Shown: in pieces, positions 6,413 through 17,942 of the stretch
How the letters are laid out: every line of letters begins with the position of its first letter
Position numbering within the stretch: the stretch's first letter is position 1
DNA from: Nitrospirota bacterium
GTDB taxonomy: Bacteria > Nitrospirota > Thermodesulfovibrionia > Thermodesulfovibrionales > Dissulfurispiraceae
NCBI GenBank assembly: GCA_963790025.1
Contig: CAWBMP010000004.1
Span: 1,600,001-1,664,000 of the forward strand
Length of the DNA: 64,000 nucleotides
Reading direction: 5' to 3'
Notes under the pieces: generated by a model
Told to the model about the DNA's origin: nothing
Databases searched by the model: none
The model's input: only the letters and a program-made list of their open reading frames with translations
Position numbers and translations under genes: made by a program

Positions 6413-6468
6413 AGACCTATGCCCATATTCTACAACATGAAAAAGCAAATGGCCACCCTGCGGTCCAT

Positions 6469-6574
6469 TTTTGCAGTTATGCAAAAGAAACGTCCCCTTT
6501 TGCAATTATGCCAAAGATTGATGGATTAAACCCTTTGAAAATCAACCCATTCATCATTGGCATGAGGAATGCAT
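6469..6574 (+). promoter_or_regulatory. sigma54 promoter with two upstream palindromic enhancer sites and an IHF-like site
   Basis: TGGCATGAGGAATGC at 6558-6572 has exact GG-N10-GC spacing; palindromes TTTTGCAgttaTGCAAAA (6469-6486) and TTTTGCAattaTGCcAAA (6498-6515); AATCAAcccaTTc (6540-6552) is a near match to WATCAANNNNTTR. Confidence 0.75.
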
Positions 6575-6622
6575 ATATAAAGGTAAGATGCAGACAAGAG
6601 TACAAGAAGGAGGTACAAAGAG

Positions 6623-6949
6623 ATGAAAAAGGGTGAGATGGCAAAAAAGGGATTATATACCGGAGCAGGAGCAGGATTGGTCTTATTTGCACTTATGGGG
6701 TTGCTGCCCGGGTCATTTATAGGCGGCGTCATCGGGATCAACATAGCGGGCAGTATTTTTGGGCTGCCGTTGGAAGCAACGGTGCTGCCGAGGATCATAG
6801 TTGGAGCATCTATGGTAATGGGAGTGATGCTGGCCGGGGTGGTATTTGTTGTGGGCAGTGCATTGATCGGCTGGCTCATAGGTCATGCTGTTGATGTTGT
6901 TAGGGAAGGCAGGACCGTTGTCGTGGAACATACAATTAAAAGCGAATAA
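6623..6949 (+). CDS. small Gly-rich membrane protein, paralog 1
   Basis: AGGAGG RBS; hydrophobic Gly-rich helices; clearly homologous to the next ORF (MAKKGLY.G.G.GL.LF.L.GLLPG.FIGG). Confidence 0.85.
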   Translation: MKKGEMAKKGLYTGAGAGLVLFALMGLLPGSFIGGVIGINIAGSIFGLPLEATVLPRIIVGASMVMGVMLAGVVFVVGSALIGWLIGHAVDVVREGRTVVVEHTIKSE

Positions 6950-6981
6950 TAAAATACAACACAATAAAGGAGGAAAATAAA

Positions 6982-7329
6982 ATGTCAACCAGCAGCAGGC
7001 ACGGAAGCGAGAATGAGATGGCAAAAAAGGGATTGTATATAGGTACAGGAATGGGACTGATACTGTTTGTCCTGGTGGGACTGCTTCCTGGAATATTTAT
7101 CGGGGGCATGGGCGGATTGAAGATTGGGGAGATACTGTTCGGGGCCGTATCAGCCGGGGCGATAATGCCGAGACTGATTGTTGCCTTTTCCATGATACTG
7201 GGGCTGCTTATGTCGGCGGTTGTTTTTATTGTCGGGTCCGGAGTGCTGGGCTGGACAGTGGGTTTTATAGCAGATGCGGTCAAGACCGGCAAGGTTACGG
7301 TGACAGAGACTGCTGAAAAGAATGCCTGA
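6982..7329 (+). CDS. small Gly-rich membrane protein, paralog 2
   Basis: AGGAGG RBS; tandem paralog of 6623-6949, sharing GAGATGGCAAAAAAGGGATT at the DNA level. Confidence 0.85.
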   Translation: MSTSSRHGSENEMAKKGLYIGTGMGLILFVLVGLLPGIFIGGMGGLKIGEILFGAVSAGAIMPRLIVAFSMILGLLMSAVVFIVGSGVLGWTVGFIADAVKTGKVTVTETAEKNA

Positions 7330-7695
7330 ATGATGCGGGAAGAGGGTATGAATAATTGTACTTTCTTGCTCGACTGCAAAGTCACTGCTGTGCGAGAATA
7401 TACCTCGTTATAGTAGCTGTTTACAGTCGCTTTTTTTTGAATTTCTCCATTTAGCCAAATTAATGATATCGCATCAGTGTCTATAATTACAATGTGCGGA
7501 CACCGATTCCTGACCATTGCTGACAGTTTTTGATTCCTCACGGAAATCAACACCTGGCAGCGATCATTCAAGAGCGAAGGTTTCTTTTTACAATCAACGC
7601 TCGCAGGCCCAAGAGGCAACATTGAAGAAGCAGCGCAAAAACCAGACATTTCTATTTTGGTAAAAACAGGATTAACAGACCTTTCAAAATTTAAC

Positions 7696-7724
7696 TTGAC
7701 ATTCACCCCCATTAGAGATAGAGT
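7696..7724 (+). promoter_or_regulatory. sigma70-type promoter with no clear downstream CDS
   Basis: TTGACA-N17-TAGAGT. Confidence 0.5.
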
Positions 7725-8044: not shown

Positions 8045-8794
8045 CTAATTATTCCCGATCTGGTTCATTGCTTTATTCAGGACTGTTATCCACTGTCTAT
8101 AACCGCTAGAACTAGGGTGGATGCCATCATCGAGAAAATATTGTTGAATTATCCGGCCGTTAGAATCCGCAAGAACATTCCAAGTGTCCACAAAAATGCA
8201 ATTACTACGCCTTTCGCACAAAGACTTTATAGTGCGATTAGCCTCTGTAATATCTGATTCTTTCATTTTCATCCACCCCCCATTAGTTTTGACAGGCATT
8301 ACTGAACTCCATATCAACGGCCTGTCTTTAGGGAGCGCGTCGAGTATTTTACTATACCTTTCTGGCAAGCCCTGCTGTCGGCCCTGCCATATGTCATTTA
8401 TCCCTATGGCCAAAACAATCGCTCTTGCTCTGTGCAACGACTTGTAATACGGAAGCGCGTCTATCAACTCTGCGGTAATCTCCCCGCCAATTCCATAGTT
8501 GACAGAATAGGGGGCAACCGCAGCCGTAGCCAAGCCCTGCGTAATGCTATCACCAAGGAAGACAACTGATTTCTCGGGGACAAACTCGTCCATCCACTTA
8601 TGGTATGTTAACATCTCTTTATAATGCTGATAATCAGGTGGAAGTGGCCTGGCAGTGTAAGGATTTAAGCCAAACTTGTCCTTAAACTTTGGAATGAAAT
8701 CTGTTTTTACAATCAATATACCAACAAAAAGATGGAGACAAATGATGTAGATAACTACCGGCCAGCGCCATCCCTTGTGCTGTTTGTTAATCAT
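8045..8794 (-). CDS. SGNH/GDSL hydrolase with N-terminal membrane anchor
   Basis: Blocks FLGDSIT, NYGIGG, IGIND and DGIHP. Confidence 0.9.
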   Translation of the reverse strand: MINKQHKGWRWPVVIYIICLHLFVGILIVKTDFIPKFKDKFGLNPYTARPLPPDYQHYKEMLTYHKWMDEFVPEKSVVFLGDSITQGLATAAVAPYSVNYGIGGEITAELIDALPYYKSLHRARAIVLAIGINDIWQGRQQGLPERYSKILDALPKDRPLIWSSVMPVKTNGGWMKMKESDITEANRTIKSLCERRSNCIFVDTWNVLADSNGRIIQQYFLDDGIHPSSSGYRQWITVLNKAMNQIGNN

Positions 8795-9011: not shown

Positions 9012-9107
9012 CGTTTTCTGAGCCGCGCAGACGTGGTACAAATCACCGGGAAAAGTTACCGGCTCAAAGATAGTGCTTGCAAAAACAAAAATGAAAATGG
9101 TAAATAA
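9012..9107 (+). pseudogene. istB: 3' remnant of IS21-family helper ATPase
   Basis: Translates RFLSRADVVQITGKSYRLKDSACKNKNENGK*, matching the IstB C-terminal I.G.SYRL motif; not in the ORF track. Confidence 0.75.
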
Positions 9108-9130
9108 AACAGGAAAGAGGTATAAGCAAA

Positions 9131-9676
9131 GTGGAGAGAGGAAATCTGCCGCAGGTGACTAGTAACGACCAACCAATTTTTGTCTTGCGCTATCGTCGTT
9201 GTGCGATAATATTGCACTGGTTTTTATGTTTGCTTCTGATTCCCGCAATGTTTTATGGCATATTCTTGGATCCGATTAGTAAGCCTATTATTGAGGAGGT
9301 CATTCGCAGAATGGCAAGGGCATTTGTTTTTATCGTTTCTATTGACCTGTTGTTCAATTTATTGTTTTTTAAAGAAGTCAGACTATACTCAGACAGAATC
9401 TCTAAGGTGTGGCATTTGTTTGGATCAAGGGATATCCCACTACGAGATGCAATGTTAAAAGGACGGAACTTTTATGCGAGACCGCGTAGAATCTATGACT
9501 TAAGAAAGAACCCATTTCTAAGATTTCTTAGTGGTATATTTTATAGGGAGGACATGGCAAGTAAAACAGATTATAGAAAAATGACGAGCTTATTAGCAGA
9601 ATTGTCAGGCAGGAGCGTCCAAGAATTTGAACAATCTAAATTTAGTTTTAAAAGACTAATCATGGTAAAAAAATAG
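9131..9676 (+). CDS. hypothetical membrane protein, passenger inside the IS21 remnant
   Basis: 181-aa AT-rich ORF with two hydrophobic segments, lying between the istB remnant and the IS21-like end. Confidence 0.6.
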   Translation: MERGNLPQVTSNDQPIFVLRYRRCAIILHWFLCLLLIPAMFYGIFLDPISKPIIEEVIRRMARAFVFIVSIDLLFNLLFFKEVRLYSDRISKVWHLFGSRDIPLRDAMLKGRNFYARPRRIYDLRKNPFLRFLSGIFYREDMASKTDYRKMTSLLAELSGRSVQEFEQSKFSFKRLIMVKK

Positions 9677-9686
9677 AACCTTATAT

Positions 9687-9738
9687 TGGCGGGTTTTAAA
9701 CCGCCCCTACCTGGCTGGTTTTAATCCGACCGCTGACA
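9687..9738 (+). mobile_element. IS21-family right end
   Basis: Two related 20-mers, TGGCGGGTTTTAAACCGCCC (9687) and TGGCTGGTTTTAATCCGACC (9712), then terminal TGACA; downstream of the istB remnant and directly followed by a truncated gene. Confidence 0.7.
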
Positions 9739-9739
9739 G

Positions 9740-9865
9740 TCATTATTTGGCTTCGCTCCAGAGAAGTATTATTCAGGCAAAAGAATTTGCGTTACCGGAA
9801 CTATAAAAAGTTATCGTGGGACACCGGAGATTATAGTGAACGATCCATCTCAGATAAAAGAATGA
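9740..9865 (+). pseudogene. C-terminal fragment of an OB-fold nucleic-acid-binding protein interrupted by the IS21 end
   Basis: Translates SLFGFAPEKYYSGKRICVTGTIKSYRGTPEIIVNDPSQIKE* with no start codon; begins right after the IS end. Confidence 0.65.
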
Positions 9866-9944
9866 GTGCTTAAGAAGCATCACAAAATAAGGAGCATTTG
9901 CTGGCATTTTCTAATTCATAGTGGCACAATGGACCGGGGATAGG

Positions 9945-10646
9945 TCAATCATAAAGTACTTTTTTGATCTGTTCGTAATTACTTTGTGCTATCTCATTCT
10001 CGCGCAGTTTCTGTAGTATCACTTCGCGGCCGAATTTAAATTTACTTCCTTCCTCATCTTGGACATAATTTTGATTCTTGGCCGCCGCATCCAGACAGAC
10101 TAAATCCATCCTTATTTTTTCGGGCTTCCTTAGTCCATATTCCTTTGCCAAGCCAAGTAACTTATCAAAATTAGTTGTTGTAAACCTTTTTTTTGTATCC
10201 CAAGAAGATAAAAGAGATTGACCGAGTTCATAATAATATTCATTTGAAAATTCCATATTTTTTATCAGAGCTTCAACATCACTTTTTTTCATTCTACTGC
10301 TAGTGCGTTCATTATATTCCTTGAGGACACCTTTCAGGTCTGCAATATCGTTTTCGGTTAGCGCCTCGACTTGAGCTTTTGAGAATATTCTAGAAGTTAT
10401 ATCGATTTCATTTGTAGTGAGCTTGGGATAATCAGTTGGTTCAGTCGTTGGTTTACCAGCAAACACGTAGTAGGGCCATACGACCGCTTTAGCTGTAGCG
10501 ACAATCTCTCCAAAAAACACCCATTTTACGACACCATTCTCTCGTGCATAGCGCCAATTATATATAGGAATAAATATTAATGAAGCTATAGCAAAATATA
10601 TTACTAAAAGCCCAATCGCGATTTTACCTAAAGGATTGTTATTCAT
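9945..10646 (-). CDS. hypothetical membrane-anchored protein
   Basis: 233-aa ORF with AAGGAG RBS and N-terminal TM segments. Confidence 0.75.
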   Translation of the reverse strand: MNNNPLGKIAIGLLVIYFAIASLIFIPIYNWRYARENGVVKWVFFGEIVATAKAVVWPYYVFAGKPTTEPTDYPKLTTNEIDITSRIFSKAQVEALTENDIADLKGVLKEYNERTSSRMKKSDVEALIKNMEFSNEYYYELGQSLLSSWDTKKRFTTTNFDKLLGLAKEYGLRKPEKIRMDLVCLDAAAKNQNYVQDEEGSKFKFGREVILQKLRENEIAQSNYEQIKKVLYD

Positions 10647-10680
10647 ATTTATCTCCTTATCTCAAGTTACTGACAGGTTG

Positions 10681-11052
10681 TTATTTTCTACTAAAGAAAT
10701 AAAGAAATACAAATACAGCTATGATCAGTAGATAGCCGCTGCCCTTTGCCCATGAAATATACGGGTCAATATCTGAGTCATCTTTTCCGCGTGTTGGGAA
10801 GTGAAAAAACCACGCACCACATCCAATAATAATCCCCATCCCCAGGATAGGATTTAGAATATCGTTTAATGTGAGCTGTGCAAGTGGAATATCGCCAATG
10901 CTGCGAGGATTAGGATTTACAAAGTTGTAGCCGACATAGCCAAGTGTAGCAATGAAAAGCGCCCTGAAAATCATTCCCCATATGTGCTGAGCTTTTACAA
11001 TGAAACTATCCCAAGAGAATTTTGTCTTTCTTTCCGTTCCGTTCTCAGACAT
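10681..11052 (-). CDS. hypothetical membrane protein (about 3 TM)
   Basis: 123-aa ORF with three hydrophobic segments, co-oriented with 9945-10646. Confidence 0.7.
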   Translation of the reverse strand: MSENGTERKTKFSWDSFIVKAQHIWGMIFRALFIATLGYVGYNFVNPNPRSIGDIPLAQLTLNDILNPILGMGIIIGCGAWFFHFPTRGKDDSDIDPYISWAKGSGYLLIIAVFVFLYFFSRK

Positions 11053-11282
11053 TCTCTTTGCCCCGCTATGGTTATGATGCTAACAGCATACATTCCCGGA
11101 AAAATTATTGCAAGGCTTTTTCTCATAGATACTGGGCAGAGTATTTCATAGATACCCCCGCTCAAAATGACGGTGTAAGAGCCATCCTTGTTTTATCATC
11201 TCCGGAAAAGCATACTTGTGTTAAAATGGCTCATCTGCTTACTATTCCTCGTTCCCTCTCTTATTCATATAGCACTCTCTAT

Positions 11283-11486
11283 TCAAAAGCGCAACAGTTT
11301 AGCAAAGGGCTCCTGCGCCGTGTCCACCGTGATACTAGCATCCCTGTCGTCGGAACGATAGGCGACAATACTTCCATCGTGCAGTCGCTCAATAATAATA
11401 CTGTGGGCGCGGCATCTAGCCTGAAACGTATAGGAGTTATGCGTGTATTCGAGGATTAACCGGAGATTTTCGAGCATCATAGACAT
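11283..11486 (-). CDS. small hypothetical protein
   Basis: 67-aa ORF co-oriented with its neighbours; no clear RBS or motif. Confidence 0.35.
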   Translation of the reverse strand: MSMMLENLRLILEYTHNSYTFQARCRAHSIIIERLHDGSIVAYRSDDRDASITVDTAQEPFAKLLRF

Positions 11487-11525
11487 GGGGGAATATTATA
11501 TAACCAGGTTTGATTTCCTGTAAAG

Positions 11526-12813
11526 GTCGCTCTATCAACTGCTCCTCACAGGAACACGCACGGGGCGGCGATAATTCGACACTGAATATTTCTACCGGCA
11601 ATCAGCGTCGGCCGATACCTATCAGCAGTAGCAGTCTCGTGGCAAACATGATAGAATTGATCCCACTGGTCCCGTAAGCATTACAATTTTCCATAGGCGT
11701 GAAGTAGACGTGCTGTGTCCTGACCATCAATTATGAGGAAGTGAGCTTTCTTGCCTGTTACATGGAGGGCAGAAACCTTTCCTTGTACGTCCGTAATAAG
11801 CGCATCTGCTATAGGTCCAACATATTGTACGACGAAAAGGTCCGCTGGCGCTGTGAAGAGACGTATGATCTGGTCACCGTTCTTTCCACAGTCGGCAATC
11901 GTCATCTCCTTTTGTCCAATACCCGGCCCCTTTAGCAGAAAGGCGGTAGCACGTCTGGCGCCAGCAACCACGACGTTTGCAGTGTAAAGGTCATTAATTT
12001 CACCACCCCAGTCTTTCTTGTGGAAAGGAACGCCAAGTATTTCCTCCAAAGCTCGCTGCACTTGGTCTTCAGACAAACGAACGAAGCCATTTTTTAGCAA
12101 TCCAAAAACTAAAGCGGGGTTCACGTCCCTGACTTTCTGAAAGCTATCGATGTCCTCAACATAAAGACGATCTTGAATTGGGAGGTCCGTATACTGCTGT
12201 AGTGAAGTCTTTCTTATTGTCTCTAGCCCGCGAATATAGTGGCCGCATTTACGTAACATGCTATTATATTTGTACTCTGCTATTGTTACTCCCCTTACGG
12301 CTCCAAGGGGAATATCTGGATTACGAAATAAATTTACTTCAAGTTCTGAAGGGAAAATAGACGTCAATTTGGCAATTATTTCTTCCATCCATTGGGAAAT
12401 CAATTCTTCGTACCGTAAGTAATCGATGCTTTCGCTGTAGTCTCCGGTTTGTTGTTTCACTGCATAATCTTTTTCGATTTCTATTTTTAAGGCATATCCG
12501 CGGTTAATTAATGTAACAATGTCTTCATTTGCCGACACCATTGGCATTTTGAGTCTCACGCTTACTCTCCTTCATAAGGCTATGGATTAGCGCCTAAATG
12601 GGTATTCACAATAAGTATAACCCCTAATCAGCAGAATTTTCTTCCACCTTTTTGAGTACTCGTAGGTTAAGGCTTCTGCCGAAGAGTCCGCTTCGTTTAG
12701 AAAACTTCTATATGCTATGCACAAGTTGATTTTCTCACTTACGAATGGAAAGTCGCGGAGAGCAGTTTCCAAGAAGAGTCGCTCTCTAATAGCCCCAAGT
12801 CCTCACAGGAACA
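11526..12813. repeat. bipartite direct repeat flanking the nuclease gene
   Basis: GTCGCTCT at 11526 and 12778, each followed after 9 or 14 nt by an exact TCCTCACAGGAACA (11543-11556; 12800-12813). Confidence 0.6.
11681..12559 (-). CDS. putative restriction-endonuclease-like (PD-(D/E)xK-type) nuclease with helical N-terminal domain
   Basis: AAGGAG RBS with GTG start; C-terminal E...DWGGEINDL...AFLLKG...DQIIRL...IIDGQD pattern resembles Mrr-like nucleases. Confidence 0.6.
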   Translation of the reverse strand: MRLKMPMVSANEDIVTLINRGYALKIEIEKDYAVKQQTGDYSESIDYLRYEELISQWMEEIIAKLTSIFPSELEVNLFRNPDIPLGAVRGVTIAEYKYNSMLRKCGHYIRGLETIRKTSLQQYTDLPIQDRLYVEDIDSFQKVRDVNPALVFGLLKNGFVRLSEDQVQRALEEILGVPFHKKDWGGEINDLYTANVVVAGARRATAFLLKGPGIGQKEMTIADCGKNGDQIIRLFTAPADLFVVQYVGPIADALITDVQGKVSALHVTGKKAHFLIIDGQDTARLLHAYGKL

Positions 12814-12969
12814 AACGCCTCAAAGCGTCTCTAGGATTCTGCGGAGTACAACAGATAATTGCTTGAGAAGCGACCACGATCCTTACATGCTGTAAAGATA
12901 TTCCTTAATCTGAGAAGTGTCCCTGAGTTTCTCTCTTTATGGACAAGCCGCCAACATAGCACTCTTGCT

Positions 12970-13467
12970 TCAGTACCATAAAACAACGGCGGCGATTGCA
13001 GTTGCTATTTTCTTAACCTCATGTTCAACTGAAACGCTCATGATAGAGGCAACAGCTTCACGGCGCATCTTCATGGCCTCCTGAGCCATCCGTTGTGTGA
13101 TGCGTTCAATATCCTGTTTCCTTCCTCGTGAGGAATATTCCATGATGACTCCTGGTTTGCTCTTATCTTGTGGCAAAGCAACAGCTACGGCTGCAGAAAT
13201 AAATTCATGTTCTAAGTCGGATGTAATCGCAGCATAGGCTACAGGTACCAATGCGCCATAGGGCAATCTAATAGGTTTGACCTCACAGCAATTGGGCGGG
13301 ATTATACTGCTTATTTTGACAAGGTTTGAATTACCAATCCCTGCATTTAATAAGGCTCCATCGAAAGAATTGAGTTCCGTGTAACCTTCAGCGCTACCAA
13401 CTACCATAAAGAATTTGTTTGGTGTTCCATAAATGACTCCTTCAAGAGAATTGCCTATTTTTTTCAT
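12970..13467 (-). CDS. pdaD: pyruvoyl-dependent arginine decarboxylase
   Basis: LNSFDGALLNAGIGNSNLVKISSIIPP contains the Ser-Ser autocleavage site; GVIMEY; C-terminal AAVVLW. Confidence 0.9.
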   Translation of the reverse strand: MKKIGNSLEGVIYGTPNKFFMVVGSAEGYTELNSFDGALLNAGIGNSNLVKISSIIPPNCCEVKPIRLPYGALVPVAYAAITSDLEHEFISAAVAVALPQDKSKPGVIMEYSSRGRKQDIERITQRMAQEAMKMRREAVASIMSVSVEHEVKKIATAIAAVVLWY

Positions 13468-13490
13468 GAAGTCACCTAATCAAATAACCT

Positions 13491-15095
13491 TCAAAATTTA
13501 TTCAGCTTAGGACGTATCTCTTCTTTGCTTATCGTCAAAGCATATATGGGATAGATATTCTCACCAAAGCGCTCATCAGCAACATGTTTAAATCCAAAAT
13601 ACTTACATAATCTCACTCCAACTTCCGTGATCGGAGAAGTAGCTACATACTTGGCATGTTCGAGCAGATAGTTTCCAACAGATCTGATTAAGAAACTACC
13701 CGCCCGCGAAGCGCCCCGTGAAGGGATAGTTGCAACAACTTCCAGAAAGAAATAATCCGTATCCTCATCTCTCAAAACCCCTAATTCAGAAAGATCAATA
13801 TCTGCAGATACGTCGCTGATAGAACTAATTACTCCTGCTAAAATGCGTTCAAATAGTGCCTTTTTAATGGGAACCAATGTCGCATAACCTAAGACCCAAT
13901 TTTTTTCGTCGCGAATTACCCAAAACACCCGCGGGTTATATGCATACCATCGTTTTAAGCTAGCAACAGAGAACACATGCCCATAGCCCGGGAAATTCCC
14001 CCATTCAATTTGCAGAATGCTTGATAATTCATCCTCACGAGCTAAATCAAAAGTGAGTTCACCGTGTATTTCGCGGTCTAATTTACTATATTCATGGTAG
14101 AGATAATCAGTGCCATGATCTTTTTCAATCTCGCAACTGAGAGGGCACCCTCCTCCACAGCGATCAAAATCATTACAAATCTTGCACCTTCCCGGCAAAT
14201 ATTCTCTATTTCTAAATGATTCGAGTATCTCAGAAGTATTCCAAATCTCCAGAAGCGGCCGTTCCAAAATATTGCCCAAACGATATCGTGGATCAGCCCC
14301 ACAACGAGAAAGAGCTCCTTCTATATTTACTGACGCAATTGATATACCCCACTTGCAGGGCGTCATATATTTCTTTAGTTCATTAGGAAGAATGCATAAT
14401 GGAAAGGGGTCTTCAACGGTTATTCTTATTCCAAGTTCTTTGTCAATTCTTTTGATGTCATTTAAAGACTGCTCTGCTTGTTGCCTTGTTAGCGTGAAAT
14501 TTGATGAGCCCGCTGCTCTGCCGAATGGAACTATTCTTTGCACAATGATGTAATTCAATTTCACTTTCTCTACGTTGACAATCCTATTAACTAAATCGAA
14601 GATTTTATCACTGATAGTGGGGAGAATATTAATAGCTATTCCTGTTTCCCGCCCAAGTCCTGACAATCTTTTCAATCTACCAATCACTGCCTGATATGCC
14701 CCCTCCCGGCGACAAAACTGATCATGGAGTCTGGGCTCGACATGGTGAATAGTGGTCTCAAATGCCGAGATATATTTTGCCGCCTCCTCTAAGGAAGAAT
14801 TTGGAAACAGTAAGGTATTTGATAAAATCGACACACGAATGCCATACGATTCAACAGCATACTTGGCGAGTTCTACGGCATGAGGATAGGCGCCAGGATC
14901 GCCGCCAAGCAACATAATGTTTTTGACTTTAGCAGAGCCGAGGGCGTCTACAACCTTTGTCGCTTTTTCTAGTGGAGGATGCTTCGGCTTGGCGGAAACA
15001 TCGTCGCCCGCATAACAAAAGGGACATTGATGAGAACAGACATAGGTAACGTGGAAGGCGACCGTATCAACGTGGTATTTATAGTCATCGGCCAT
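13491..15095 (-). CDS. radical SAM/SPASM protein fused to a C-terminal GNAT-like domain
   Basis: CSHQCPFC (CxxxCxxC) and LLGGDP; SPASM cysteines CKWG..SRC..GN..CKIC..RCGGGC; the last ~190 aa show a GNAT-like pattern (LGYATLVP, LEVVAT..SRGASRAGSFLI, GVRLCKYFGF). Confidence 0.85.
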   Translation of the reverse strand: MADDYKYHVDTVAFHVTYVCSHQCPFCYAGDDVSAKPKHPPLEKATKVVDALGSAKVKNIMLLGGDPGAYPHAVELAKYAVESYGIRVSILSNTLLFPNSSLEEAAKYISAFETTIHHVEPRLHDQFCRREGAYQAVIGRLKRLSGLGRETGIAINILPTISDKIFDLVNRIVNVEKVKLNYIIVQRIVPFGRAAGSSNFTLTRQQAEQSLNDIKRIDKELGIRITVEDPFPLCILPNELKKYMTPCKWGISIASVNIEGALSRCGADPRYRLGNILERPLLEIWNTSEILESFRNREYLPGRCKICNDFDRCGGGCPLSCEIEKDHGTDYLYHEYSKLDREIHGELTFDLAREDELSSILQIEWGNFPGYGHVFSVASLKRWYAYNPRVFWVIRDEKNWVLGYATLVPIKKALFERILAGVISSISDVSADIDLSELGVLRDEDTDYFFLEVVATIPSRGASRAGSFLIRSVGNYLLEHAKYVATSPITEVGVRLCKYFGFKHVADERFGENIYPIYALTISKEEIRPKLNKF

Positions 15096-15107
15096 GCTTT
15101 ATATCCT

Positions 15108-15677
15108 TTATACGCCAGTCGGCTTATTGAGCAATTTAATGACTTCTTTTAAACTCAGTACGATAAACGCACTCGTGATAATCCACAATATAATAACTCC
15201 GCTAATCGGTTGTGCACTGAATCGCCAAAATCCTATCAATGCTAAAAATAGACCCATTACGTCATAAATGATGATCGATGTTATTCGGTTTTCTTTAGGA
15301 ATAAAAATCAGATCCCAAAGTATGAAGATACAGTGCATAACGATGAAACCAGTGTAGAACAGCTGTATAGTCCCAGAAGTTTTTAGTCCATCCATTAAGC
15401 TCTTATAGGATAAAAATAAAAAAAATAGAACTATCAAATCAGAAATAAAAAGCTTATATGTGTAAACGCTCTTGGAAACATATGTGTACATATAGTCAAG
15501 GGAAAAGTTAACAACAATACCTACTGAAGCGATCACATAAATAACTTTACCAAGACCTTCACCAATATGAGAAAAATCATCTAAAAGGTTGTAAAATAAC
15601 GTACCAAGGATGGCTGGATATAGCAGAGACGTCATTAAGATATACGGCATTGAATTGCATTGATTTGAATTATTCAT
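15108..15677 (-). CDS. hypothetical polytopic membrane protein (about 6 TM)
   Basis: 189-aa, highly hydrophobic, AT-rich; ends 12 bp upstream of the radical SAM gene. Confidence 0.8.
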   Translation of the reverse strand: MNNSNQCNSMPYILMTSLLYPAILGTLFYNLLDDFSHIGEGLGKVIYVIASVGIVVNFSLDYMYTYVSKSVYTYKLFISDLIVLFFLFLSYKSLMDGLKTSGTIQLFYTGFIVMHCIFILWDLIFIPKENRITSIIIYDVMGLFLALIGFWRFSAQPISGVIILWIITSAFIVLSLKEVIKLLNKPTGV

Positions 15678-15752
15678 AGTACTGATAGGGAGTATTCTAA
15701 TCTTCTACTCTGAGCTTAGAAAGCACCTCCTCAGAATGATACAGCATACTTG

Positions 15753-16316
15753 TCATTCACTGCTAAGCGCTTCATAAAGTTTATTGGCTGATTTCTTACA
15801 ACTTGTTAAAATTTCTGGAAAGTTTGAAATTAAATCATCCTTGTTTAGGCAACCCTTCGCAGTCACAATATCAACAATATCAATTCCGGCATTTTCGCAG
15901 AAATATTTTACAGAATCAGCCGCCAATTTAATACTTTCGGCTTCTTCGCCTTCAGTTTGTCCTACAGCAAAAATGATAGCTTTTTTTCCCTTTAATGTTT
16001 GAGGTGCTGCCAAAGGATTTAAGCGATCAAAAAAGACTTTCAATTCCCCAGAAAGCAAGCTCCATCTCGCTGGCGTGCCAAAAATAAAAGCATCCGCCCG
16101 AGCCACGTCTGGTAAAAGCTCACGCATATCATCATCTTTTACACATTTGCCTTCGGCGTCACACTCTAGACACCCATCGCATACTTCCAATTTGACATCC
16201 CGTAAATGAATTAATTCAACATCACAATCTTTTGCTGTCAGCTCATGAGTTGCTGCTTCCACCATTGCGTATGTATTACCCCTTCTTGAGCTACCTACAA
16301 TTGCCAATACTCTCAT
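15753..16316 (-). CDS. iron-sulfur flavoprotein / multimeric flavodoxin (Isf-like)
   Basis: GSSRRGNT FMN loop; CDGCLECDAEGKC (CxxCxxCx5C); ADAFIFGTP; KVFFDR. Confidence 0.9.
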   Translation of the reverse strand: MRVLAIVGSSRRGNTYAMVEAATHELTAKDCDVELIHLRDVKLEVCDGCLECDAEGKCVKDDDMRELLPDVARADAFIFGTPARWSLLSGELKVFFDRLNPLAAPQTLKGKKAIIFAVGQTEGEEAESIKLAADSVKYFCENAGIDIVDIVTAKGCLNKDDLISNFPEILTSCKKSANKLYEALSSE

Positions 16317-16365
16317 TTTGCCCCCCTATAGTAAAGGACTGTTAAACATCTTGTATTGATTCAAT

Positions 16366-16393
16366 ATTATAGGTTAATGTCAGGTTAATGCAA
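16366..16393 (-). promoter_or_regulatory. sigma70-type promoter of the flavoprotein-to-pdaD operon, overlapped by an 11-bp-period direct repeat
   Basis: Minus strand TTGCAT-N16-TATAAT; CATTAACCT occurs twice (16390-16382 and 16379-16371). Confidence 0.6.
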
Positions 16394-16480
16394 TAGCTGG
16401 GCAAACCCCTGGGAAACACTATATTAAATGCTCCACCCTGTTCAGCATTCGTATATTTCTCTCCCATTAAGATTTGGAAG

Positions 16481-17032
16481 TCAAACCGTTATCTTCTTCC
16501 TGTCAAAGTTTCTTAAAAATGGGTGCATATATTTATTATTGGATTTATCTTTTATCAAGACTTTCCAATCATTACCTGTAATAAACTTACGACAATTCTT
16601 ATTTTTGCATTTACAACGCATTTCAAATTTTGGATTTGATTCTATAAGACCATAGTCATAAGTTAACTCTTCGCCTTTTTTAATGTTTTTAATTGCAATA
16701 AAGTCCCCATTATTATTAAATCCGAGGTTACCCTCGCATGAGTGGTTAAAATACCATTCAATTGATAACTTATTGAAATCTAAGTTTTCTGGCGGGATAA
16801 ATCCTTCAGGAGTTCCAACACAAAAAGCCATTACTTTATTTTTAACGGCACTATCTAAATGAACATATTCTTTCCAGGACATCAGATGGTTAAAGTCATT
16901 TACTTTCAACCCTTCAGCAACCTTTTGCCCTTTTTTAATATTAGTAACCGCAAAAACGCCAACGCCACCTTTATGAATAAGAGAAGGCTTTAATTCGAGT
17001 AACACTTTAACAATGTTTCTTTGATTTTCCAT
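16481..17032 (-). CDS. SET-domain lysine methyltransferase with post-SET motif
   Basis: GVGVFA..IKKG, FNHSCEGN, GEELTYDY, and post-SET CKCKNKNC. Confidence 0.9.
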   Translation of the reverse strand: MENQRNIVKVLLELKPSLIHKGGVGVFAVTNIKKGQKVAEGLKVNDFNHLMSWKEYVHLDSAVKNKVMAFCVGTPEGFIPPENLDFNKLSIEWYFNHSCEGNLGFNNNGDFIAIKNIKKGEELTYDYGLIESNPKFEMRCKCKNKNCRKFITGNDWKVLIKDKSNNKYMHPFLRNFDRKKITV

Positions 17033-17684
17033 AACACTCAGATTTCTTAAATTTTTCTATTTCGTTATCAAATTTCTTTTCTATATCCCACATGCTCTCC
17101 AAAGAATGCTCTTTCTTTTCTTTTCGGAGACGAAACTCGATTGGTAATAATTCGTCATACATATCTTGAATATCCTCATATAACGTCTTATCGTCACCCC
17201 ACTTTTTTCTGATTTCTCGAATTGCTTCGTTAGTATAGTGATAATATCGCATAACGTACCATCCGATAGTTGCCCACACAAGCTCTTCTTTTAATACTCC
17301 ATTTTCATAATAGGAGGCTATCCTTTCTAGAAATTCTATAACTCGCTCAACTTTATTTAAATTATCATCGCTGAAACTCGTCATAGGCAGAACTGAACAC
17401 AACTCACATCTGGCGTTTCTCATGTCTTCACTGTTCCACTCTTTGTATAATTCTGTCAAAGTTTGTAATTCTAATTGTTTTTGAAGCTGTTTTCCCTGCC
17501 ACACAATTACTGCTGCAGTAATAAGCGTCAACAATAAGGTCGCCCACGCAGCATAGTCTACATCTAACTTTCGATTGATAAGTGCAGACCTCACTAGAAA
17601 ACCGATTATAAAGCCAGATCCCGACAAACAAAGCCAGATGACCCAATTGTGAAATGTTTTTATCTTATAAATAAAAAGTTTCAT
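17007..17684 (-). CDS. DUF4760-like membrane-anchored protein
   Basis: Two N-terminal TM segments, then EWNSEDMRNAR...VIEFLERIASYYENGVLKEELV; overlaps the SET gene start by 26 bp. Confidence 0.7.
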   Translation of the reverse strand: MKLFIYKIKTFHNWVIWLCLSGSGFIIGFLVRSALINRKLDVDYAAWATLLLTLITAAVIVWQGKQLQKQLELQTLTELYKEWNSEDMRNARCELCSVLPMTSFSDDNLNKVERVIEFLERIASYYENGVLKEELVWATIGWYVMRYYHYTNEAIREIRKKWGDDKTLYEDIQDMYDELLPIEFRLRKEKKEHSLESMWDIEKKFDNEIEKFKKSECYGKSKKHC

Positions 17685-17942
17685 ACTGCGCGGATCTTTC
17701 CTATTGCGGTTTTATCATTTATCACAAATTCTCCTGATAATATACACCTTTATAAAGCAATATGAAAGAGTTCGTTGCATGAAGGACTGGAAATGACCAA
17801 GGCTGCATGCACGACGCACGGTTATAACCGGTAACCAATGGTGTTGCTGAGATGTCCGAGGTGTTTAGTATCAGGTGGACCCCGGATCGGAACCGATAGG
17901 TTCCCCATGCTATATTAGATGCCACAGATAATTGATTCAAAC

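Follow-up and report, generated by a model that had tools for sequence, protein, structure and literature searches.

A radical SAM/SPASM enzyme fused to a GNAT-fold domain marks a rare mobile cassette with a possible agmatine-type substrate

In a 64,000-nucleotide stretch of a Nitrospirota genome (hereafter the window), we analysed a gene for an enzyme, here designated rSAM-GNAT, in which a radical S-adenosylmethionine (SAM) core and a SPASM domain are followed by a C-terminal GNAT-fold domain. The gene is the signature gene of a rare and horizontally mobile cassette, which in the window also encodes an iron-sulfur flavoprotein (Isf), a membrane protein (MP189) and a pyruvoyl-dependent arginine decarboxylase (PdaD). 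Thus, two known superfamilies are combined in an uncharacterised fusion, which is carried by an undescribed mobile cassette. Our tentative reading, with a probability of roughly 45%, is that the cassette makes or alters a small amine of the agmatine type, that rSAM-GNAT is a bifunctional enzyme acting on a small molecule and not on a ribosomal peptide, and that the system probably serves in conflict between organisms. Both radical SAM/SPASM and GNAT proteins constitute very large superfamilies, and of the enzymes that unite their chemistries only Elp3 has been studied well; rSAM-GNAT is a second fusion of this kind, unrelated to Elp3. The features of the enzyme in window coordinates are as follows.

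13491..15095, minus strand: rSAM-GNAT open reading frame (ORF), radical SAM/SPASM plus GNAT-fold domain, 534 aa (ORF, Pfam, homologues and alignment A1)
14604..15050, minus strand: radical SAM core, residues 16-164, with C20/C24/C27 and GGDP at residues 64-67 (PF04055 and alignment A1)
14133..14357, minus strand: SPASM domain, residues 247-321, with seven cysteines, ending CGGGCPLSC (PF13186, TIGR04085 and alignment A1)
13494..14078, minus strand: GNAT-fold domain, residues 340-534; strands 3 and 4 are separated by an inserted stretch of about 35 residues (AF2 model, Foldseek and VIA)

The rSAM-GNAT gene is a single intact ORF with an ATG start, and its long frame, matches to curated domains and about 100 homologous clusters place it far beyond chance. 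The Pfam model Radical_SAM (PF04055) matched residues 16-164 with 67.8 bits (cut-off 29.5), the Pfam model SPASM (PF13186) matched residues 247-308 with 33.4 bits (cut-off 21.5), and the NCBIfam SPASM model TIGR04085 scored 34.1 against a cut-off of 27. In alignment A1, which comprises 39 full-length homologues, the three cysteines of the CX3CX2C motif (C20-x3-C24-x2-C27) were invariant in 39/39 sequences, and so was GGDP (G64-G65-D66-P67), a conservative variant of GGEP, the GGE-type SAM-binding motif. The SPASM domain is described by the seven-cysteine formula CX9-15GX4C ... CX2CX5CX3C ... C, and rSAM-GNAT has the corresponding C247-x12-G260-x4-C265 and C304-x2-C307-x5-C313-x3-C317-x3-C321, with C234 further upstream and CGGGCPLSC at residues 313-321. 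C234, C247, C265, C307, C313, C317 and C321 were invariant in alignment A1, and C304 was conserved in at least 90% of the sequences. The seven-cysteine set is predicted to serve two auxiliary Fe-S clusters, and the whole protein to hold three [4Fe-4S] clusters. An earlier preliminary description of this ORF had pointed out an intact CxxxCxxC, the GGDP variant and a SPASM cysteine set ending in CGGGCPLSC, all of which we recovered, as well as the absence of an N-terminal RRE/PqqD-like extension. The last point also held, since Pfam detected no PqqD/RRE family (RRE, recognition element of RiPPs, i.e., peptides that are synthesized ribosomally and modified post-translationally) in the protein and the radical SAM motif begins already at residue 20.

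The last ~195 residues, which follow the SPASM domain and had been described as about 190 extra residues with GNAT-like features, matched no Pfam family at E<=0.01. Their identity was settled by a fold search, sequence methods alone being insufficient. We used a 9-sequence profile of the domain (alignment A2) and its extension by 51 relatives found with hidden Markov models (HMMs) to 60 sequences (alignment A3). The AF2 model of the C-terminal domain alone, built on alignment A3, reached a pLDDT of 94.3 and a pTM of 0.90, and the order of its strands and helices agrees with that of amine N-acetyltransferases. Foldseek against the PDB returned at least 500 matches at E<=0.001, and all among the matches listed belong to the GNAT superfamily; the lowest E-value among them (6.9e-8, probability 1.00) was obtained for the spermine/arylalkylamine N-acetyltransferase 5yag, followed by RimI, PA4794, arylalkylamine N-acetyltransferase (AANAT) and dopamine N-acetyltransferase. 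Re-alignment by VIA gave Z>=8 for 934 of 999 chains, the best ones lying at Z 14-16 with a top value of 16.2. In its predicted structure, the C-terminal domain therefore has a GNAT fold, albeit one divergent in sequence. Two further searches point in the same direction as leads: the closest ESM Atlas neighbours of the domain were GNAT clusters (0.91), and the best match of its profile to PDB sequences was to archaeal N-terminal acetyltransferases at a sub-threshold E of 0.08. Acetyltransf_1 was detected below threshold in three of nine family members (best E 0.0017). E364, E452 and several core positions of the domain were invariant in alignment A1.

As for the kind of GNAT protein that the domain resembles, amine N-acetyltransferases (5yag, AANAT, dopamine N-acetyltransferase) and RimI/Ard1 share the fold (Foldseek E down to 6.9e-8, VIA Z 14-16), but the domain differs from them in its low identity (10-18% among the matches listed), the insertion of about 35 residues, the lack of a clear Q/RxxGxG/A motif and the fusion to a radical SAM enzyme. 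The highest VIA Z values (16.0-16.2), the longest alignments (160-168 residues) and the best Foldseek TM-scores (0.64-0.68) were those of the GNAT-like decarboxylase/loading domains of polyketide-type enzymes (SxtA, CurA GNAT_L and GphF). Ard1 and RimI nevertheless follow within one Z unit, and a lead of less than one Z unit over ordinary N-acetyltransferases is a statistical tie. Polyketide GNAT-like domains use a catalytic His/Thr pair, and the rSAM-GNAT cassette differs from their setting in that it has no acyl carrier protein, ketosynthase or methyltransferase partner.

In an exhaustive search, the HMM of alignment A2 matched 586 representative proteins (E<=1e-3), with 96 of them left at 1e-10 and 29 at 1e-30. 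Among the proteins retrieved are many that stand alone, with about 190-210 aa. One stand-alone member (P0110) passes the Pfam GNAT cut-off. A word search for the stand-alone domain found two proteins of 219 aa, which are probably fragments, a cluster look-up of 10 proteins of the subfamily gave no informative names, and among 401 genomes of the phylum the subfamily profile matched only the own genome and, weakly, one other. Fusion partners were collected by scanning 48 of the 150 HMM matches listed with Pfam. The subfamily is fused to an ornithine/arginine decarboxylase dependent on pyridoxal 5'-phosphate (PLP) (P0146), to flavin amine oxidases (P0168 and P0176) and to an AMP-binding/PP-binding enzyme, as well as to TIR, STAND/AAA_16, HD-CE, Metallophos, lipase, TPR and HTH domains. 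The latter group of partners, signalling and effector modules from TIR to HTH, is a repertoire typical of conflict systems. Individual fusions to TIR, STAND-type NTPase, HD-CE, calcineurin-like phosphoesterase and lipase domains were seen in P0229, P0239-P0241, P0244, P0165, P0186, P0211, P0199 and P0243.

In the window, rSAM-GNAT is closely packed with three other genes on the same strand, in the order Isf, MP189, rSAM-GNAT and PdaD with gaps of 75, 12 and 23 bp.

15753..16316, minus strand: Isf-type iron-sulfur flavoprotein, FMN_red fold plus CX2CX2CX5C (FMN_red 89.3 bits)
15108..15677, minus strand: MP189, a 189-aa polytopic membrane protein (hydropathy)
12970..13467, minus strand: PdaD, pyruvoyl-dependent arginine decarboxylase (PvlArgDC 155.8 bits and TIGR00286)

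The compact cysteine motif CX2CX2CX5-7C defines the iron-sulfur flavoproteins in the account of one report (PMC3164229). The first gene product combines such a motif (C46-x2-C49-x2-C52-x5-C58, conserved in 29 neighbour sequences) with an FMN_red/flavodoxin-like fold and thus belongs to this group; it is predicted to be the electron donor of the cassette. MP189 found no family in Pfam, NCBIfam or PADLOC scans. Its hydropathy indicates about six transmembrane (TM) segments, and D61, D80, H115, W121-D122 and D139 are invariant. PdaD is a clear member of its family (Pfam PvlArgDC 155.8 bits; TIGR00286 166.1 against a cut-off of 106.95), and aligns over its full length with the Methanocaldococcus jannaschii PvlArgDC (1n2m, 148 bits) with the processing serine of the Ser-Ser site aligned. 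This self-processing site is conserved in seven cassette PdaDs. In a small tree, the window PdaD grouped with the housekeeping PdaD of a relative, which is encoded in a PdaD-spermidine synthase-agmatinase operon, and the cassette PdaDs did not form a single clade; the grouping supports arginine specificity but not a lineage specific to the cassette. PdaD was found in none of the nine same-genus genomes. Neither an Arginase-family agmatinase nor an agmatine deiminase was found in the own genome (98.8% complete), so that agmatine would have no canonical sink other than the cassette.

The composition of the cassette was counted by clustering the ORFs of 48 fetched loci and the window, from which two duplicates were removed (L005/L042 being duplicates) to leave 47 distinct loci; L006 and L038, which share 98% identity, each show part of one and the same type.

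GNAT fusion on the rSAM gene: 31/47 distinct loci
FMN_red-fold (Isf-type) flavoprotein adjoining the rSAM gene: 28/47
Short-chain dehydrogenase/reductase (SDR) in the place of the flavoprotein, in the most divergent clade: 7/47
Neither flavoprotein nor SDR: 12/47; in 10 of these the sequence breaks off within about 700 bp upstream of the rSAM gene
Membrane protein of any kind: 32/47
MP189, about six TM segments, the type of the window: 8/47
TMa, two TM segments plus a soluble domain of about 150 aa: 17/47
TMb, two TM segments plus a Cys-rich domain: 7/47
Two kinds of membrane protein in one locus: 0/47

The three kinds of membrane protein, described here from hydropathy and sequence, are mutually unrelated; they are interchangeable components of the cassette, displaced one by another. 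A word search for MP189 found only two clusters, profiles of TMa and MP189 gave nothing significant against PDB sequences, and TMa had no match on plasmids. A decarboxylase gene stands beside the rSAM gene in 13/47 loci and represents three unrelated folds, namely PdaD in 11 loci, an AdoMetDC-like protein in one (L002; PF02675 79.7 bits, TIGR03330 72.8 against a cut-off of 75.65) and a SpeA-like PLP decarboxylase in one (L011; best family speA with 146 bits, below its cut-off, versus 56 for lysA). Here too, unrelated proteins occupy one position in the cassette, i.e., they have displaced each other. Displacement among three decarboxylase folds and three membrane-protein types leads to testable predictions on exchangeable parts. 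Canonical stand-alone GNATs flank three cassettes (L040, L041 and L051). As a separate observation on TMa (e.g., L025 6034-6756 and L011 9576-10301), its soluble domain carries the conserved motifs EIWLITSDL, GGPF, YxYFxP and FFFLVPKxDFxIYNP, and its fold in the ESM Atlas lies near unassigned domains of proteins with DUF4062, HTH_3, AbiEii or TrmB (TM-score about 0.5), a lead to a ligand-sensing module.

The recurrence of a membrane protein raises the question of whether the cassette modifies membrane lipids or the envelope, the radical SAM/SPASM part acting on a lipid tail or head group in the manner of archaeal GDGT enzymes, the GNAT domain N-acylating agmatine into a cationic lipid and the membrane protein being the site or the partner. 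The invariant Asp, His and Trp residues of MP189 are those one might see in a membrane enzyme, and the radical SAM part weakly matched the tetraether synthase 7tol (3.9e-7). That match, however, is confined to the cluster-binding N-terminus (residues 10-99). Moreover, there is no relationship among the three membrane proteins, two of which have two TM segments and a large soluble domain, unlike lipid enzymes, and the scanned flanks showed no genes for acyl carriers or lipid biosynthesis. We regard such a role as highly improbable.

We favour instead an agmatine-type amine as the substrate, for which the following order of steps, chemistry and product can be proposed. The decarboxylase (PdaD in the window) would convert arginine to agmatine where the host supplies none. 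The GNAT domain would then bind the amine, and may acylate it from acyl-CoA, deliver an acyl fragment or hold the amine. The radical SAM domain, reduced by the adjacent Isf, would cleave SAM and bring about a radical C-H transformation on the amine or acylamine, with the SPASM clusters handling electrons. Finally, the product would act at, or exit through, the membrane protein of the cassette, which could be its exporter, target or effector. The preliminary description, which did not include the conserved cassette or its island setting, had proposed either a two-step tailoring enzyme or a GNAT domain with an amine or acyl-CoA as its ligand, and our results support it in part. Gene context has strengthened the connection to an amine, because decarboxylases of three folds occur in 13 loci and relatives of the GNAT domain are fused to a decarboxylase and amine oxidases; the GNAT domain may be catalytically active and may bind acyl-CoA or agmatine, and the two domains may act in sequence on one substrate. 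If the product is indeed derived from agmatine, the cassette would carry out new radical chemistry on polyamine-type amines. Since it is compact and transferable and brings along a reductant as well as, in some loci, a decarboxylase to form the substrate, it should be unusually easy to reconstitute.

Several observations weigh against the agmatine-type reading. A decarboxylase is present in 13/47 loci only, and PdaD in two of the nine loci whose sequence extends for 2.5 kb or more to either side; the amine may therefore be supplied by the host, or the substrate may be a different compound altogether. Short forms, which lack the GNAT domain, occur in 16/47 loci, implying that the domain is dispensable for some family members, and in the loci with a short form no stand-alone copy of the domain was found. 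The GNAT domain of the window scored 12.4 bits against a Pfam Acetyltransf cut-off of 20.7, hhalign against three neighbouring canonical GNATs gave a probability of 3%, and the Q/RxxGxG/A acyl-CoA loop, which precedes helix 3 in GNATs, is not evident, as alignment A1 has a conserved SRxG alone at the equivalent place. The nearest solved relatives of the radical SAM part are peptide modifiers (SkfB 8.4e-18, SuiB-type 5v1q 6.9e-16 and PqqE 2.5e-15). Furthermore, PADLOC (2023) holds no model for the cassette proteins except for generic viperin matches on the radical SAM core, and the pattern of defence or variable islands seen in the cassette flanks (described below) is a raw listing with no background comparison. 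As for the loop, the acyl-CoA pyrophosphate is bound in GNATs via backbone amides, and sequence alone is not decisive on this point.

The missing canonical loop and the missed Pfam cut-offs would be expected if the GNAT domain were a non-catalytic sensor or regulator, gating the radical SAM part through a bound amine or acyl-CoA and leaving all the chemistry to it. The fusions of the subfamily to signalling and effector modules (TIR, STAND/AAA_16, HD-CE, Metallophos, lipase, TPR and HTH), and the short family members that do without the domain, can be read in the same way. Yet E364, E452 and the core positions are invariant in 39 sequences, as an active site would be, the stand-alone relative P0110 passes the Pfam GNAT cut-offs, and the fusions to decarboxylase and amine oxidases suggest amine turnover. 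A purely sensory GNAT domain thus appears unlikely to us.

The affinity of the radical SAM part to peptide modifiers bears on another explanation, in which it acts, like most characterised SPASM enzymes, on a peptide of ribosomal origin or on a protein partner (for instance, the decarboxylase proenzyme or the membrane protein), which is then N-acetylated by the GNAT domain. The SPASM maturases PqqE, SkfB, SuiB, MftC and AlbA share the radical SAM core and the seven-cysteine SPASM domain with rSAM-GNAT and are its nearest solved or curated relatives; many peptide maturases were found among the weak NCBIfam matches, and RimI and Ard1, both protein N-terminal acetyltransferases, are among the best structural matches of the GNAT model. 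Nevertheless, no NCBIfam equivalog model came near its cut-off. The best one was NirJ2 (89.9 versus 500), with AhbD at 77.4 versus 500, so that rSAM-GNAT does not reach the equivalog level of the heme d1/heme b radical SAM enzymes (NirJ, NirJ1/2, AhbC and AhbD), and all maturase equivalogs remained far below (PqqE 46.2/381, MftC 61.3/265, AlbA 40.5/850 and SkfB 37.2/300). Relative to the SPASM maturases, rSAM-GNAT is thus 4- to 20-fold below the equivalog cut-offs, has neither RRE nor precursor, and is set apart by the GNAT fusion and the link to decarboxylases, the last being left unexplained by a maturase. Neither the window neighbours nor the locus neighbours scanned had a Pfam match to RRE/PqqD, and clustering of the 1345 small ORFs located up to 1.2 kb from the cassettes (18-90 aa) gave groups shared between loci only from the duplicates L005/L042. 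Thus, no conserved precursor peptide accompanies the cassettes in the 47 distinct loci, and the tight packing of the genes in the window also speaks against one. Because both an RRE and a conserved small ORF are lacking, we do not consider the cassette to be a RiPP system, and a maturase role in general seems distinctly unlikely. From these scores, and from literature searches that found no description of the rSAM-GNAT family or the cassette, the architecture does not represent a common characterised family.

The comparison with Elp3 leads to a further explanation. Elp3, which functions in tRNA U34 carboxymethylation, is not known to have a SPASM domain, whereas that of rSAM-GNAT is complete; rSAM-GNAT, in turn, has no match to TIGR01211, no Radical_SAM_C domain and no sign of tRNA binding, and its gene is part of a mobile cassette that also encodes a flavoprotein, a membrane protein and a decarboxylase. 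On the other hand, both proteins unite a radical SAM domain and an acyl-CoA-binding GNAT domain in the same order in one polypeptide of similar size, and in Elp3, according to one report, the acetate moves from the acetyl-CoA site to the radical SAM site (PMC13315578). By analogy, rSAM-GNAT might be a nucleic-acid modifier that passes an acyl group from the GNAT domain to the radical SAM site and attaches it, perhaps with agmatine, to a tRNA or DNA base, marking self or altering decoding. Thymidine hypermodification in phages, as described in one report, employs the same enzyme classes, namely a radical SAM enzyme, a decarboxylase, a flavin enzyme and an acetyltransferase that act on an appended amino acid or amine (PMC8989533), and one rSAM-GNAT cassette sits on a 61.6-kb contig classed as viral. 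However, the radical SAM enzyme of the phage pathway is SPL-like and not of the SPASM type, none of the flanking proteins scanned was a 5-hmdU DNA kinase or an aGPT-Pplase transferase, the hallmarks of that pathway, and the protein had no match in 50,697 phage records. The ELP3 model TIGR01211 (cut-off 350) did not match at the locus in a whole-genome search at E<=0.01, in which the control gave a signal in 14/14 genomes, and Pfam found neither Radical_SAM_C nor a nucleic-acid-binding domain. In addition, the recurrent membrane protein, which the cassette has over the phage pathway, would be needless for a nucleic-acid pathway. We therefore hold a nucleic-acid modifier of this kind to be very unlikely.

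The family is small and scattered. A word-indexed search over 5.8 billion protein clusters gave 104 matches to rSAM-GNAT, 68 of which have at least 480 aa and are full-length fusions with 31-81% identity to the query, while about 28 have 300-352 aa and comprise the radical SAM/SPASM part alone. In a FastTree analysis of the radical SAM core (three rows left out as too short; topology given without support values), the family formed one tight clade on a long branch with the long and short forms interleaved. Among 185,579 species represented by one genome each, 14 loci with the family were found, their hosts being, according to record titles, Melioribacter, Cyanobacteriota, Accumulibacter, Omnitrophota, Bdellovibrionales, Bacteroides, Chitinophagaceae, Verrucomicrobia, Clostridia and one archaeon; source names of protein clusters add Hodarchaeota and Chloroflexota. 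No orthologue was found in 40 relatives from genus to order level, the best match being a radical SAM core with 28% identity, and 72,556 plasmids contained no family member but only unrelated radical SAM proteins with at most 25.5% identity. In the window, the cassette lies in a strain-specific island.

About 9100..17900, no strand assigned: low-GC (guanine plus cytosine), strain-specific island carrying the cassette, ending at the gyrB terminator (genome comparison and GC)

The nine same-genus genomes align only from about window position 17864 onward (gyrB and dnaN), window ~9100-17800 being strain-specific, a terminator-like site follows gyrB at 17979-17947, and the GC content is 0.40 in the island versus 0.49 in window 22000-64000. 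No tRNA was found in window 1-26000, nor were direct repeats found flanking the island. The absence of orthologues from the 40 relatives and of the island from congeners, the low GC content and the occurrence in many phyla and in archaea are the grounds on which we consider the cassette to be mobile.

In other genomes, Pfam was applied to 74 and PADLOC to 62 of the proteins encoded in the cassette flanks (up to about 2.5 kb away), which gave the following matches.

Restriction endonuclease plus methyltransferase pairs: L041 (316 and 278 bits) and L046 (323 and 498 bits)
Methyltransferase: L024 (221 bits); RE_Bpu10I: L012
PDC-S02 nucleases: L030 and L037
PDC-S31: L001; RelE-like toxin: L025
Trypco1 with a trypsin-like protease: L004
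Integrases: L004 and L049; transposases: L022 and L034

As the cassette sits in strain-specific and defence-type islands, we propose that it probably serves in conflict between organisms, be it phage defence or antagonism, and not in housekeeping polyamine synthesis. If the association with islands is functional, the four genes, about 3.3 kb in total, would constitute a new metabolite-based module of bacterial immunity. A more specific version has it that the cassette is a new anti-phage or conflict system, in which rSAM-GNAT, served by the flavoprotein reductase of the cassette and often by its arginine decarboxylase, turns agmatine and acyl-CoA into a small molecule that poisons the invader or is sensed by membrane effectors that shut the cell down. 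The effectors would be the six-TM protein, the two-TM protein with a soluble domain of ligand-binding type and the two-TM protein with a Cys-rich beta domain. This version is doubtful, but we keep it in play because the three kinds of membrane protein exclude one another and the cassettes lie in islands; if true, its product would be the first amino-acid-derived immune metabolite or signal made by a radical SAM enzyme outside the viperins. Prokaryotic viperins (pVips) are radical SAM enzymes of defence islands that make small antiviral molecules, and the likeness of rSAM-GNAT to them consists in a weak HMM match on the radical SAM core (PADLOC pVip 49.8 bits, residues 12-158; NCBIfam viperin_w_prok 44 bits versus 180, residues 11-152 only). 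Viperins are not known to contain SPASM or GNAT domains, both of which rSAM-GNAT possesses, and the match is confined to the generic core.

Some additional observations were made on the cassettes and their surroundings. In L023 (1774-10264), the cassette lies between a ZorD/DrmD-like SNF2 helicase and a NOV_C protein upstream, and PDC-M21A/B (170 and 195 bits) and a mad2-like methyltransferase downstream. A second, unrelated radical SAM gene is placed between the SPASM enzyme and PdaD in three short-form cassettes (L009 2885-3898, L010 8998-10008 and L044 1302-2026). We also noticed a domain of about 120-190 aa, here called 'GCGGC', with the conserved motif G/A-C-G/P-G/A-C-x-N-E-S/A-L-A, which matches no Pfam or NCBIfam family and recurs beside family members as follows.

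L003 9581-9946: 'GCGGC' domain
L013 2428-2967 and 2977-3474: 'GCGGC' domain
L045 448-1023 and 1027-2610: 'GCGGC' domain

It occurs as a free protein in all three loci, and in L045 is also fused N-terminally to the radical SAM/SPASM enzyme.

Within the island of the window, the ORFs 9945-10646, 10681-11052 and 11681-12559 found no family in Pfam, PADLOC or PHROGs, and 11681-12559 found none in NCBIfam either. Also in the island, a SET-domain protein (44.2 bits) is encoded at 16481-17032, and at 17007-17684 a DUF4760 protein whose N-terminus carries TM segments; the two genes overlap by 26 bp, have the lowest GC content of the island (0.32 and 0.35) and are not kept beside the cassette in other loci. 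The segment at about 6457-7331 of the window, which overlaps an ORF without a Pfam family (6936-7712), has 98%-identical copies in the same genome (C5:264784-265658 and C4:862553-863417) and copies of 72-78% identity in congeners, and looks like a repeated mobile element. At the edge of the island, 8045-8794 encodes a GDSL-type lipase/acylhydrolase (69.9 bits), which also matches the phage family phrog_14008 (135 bits).

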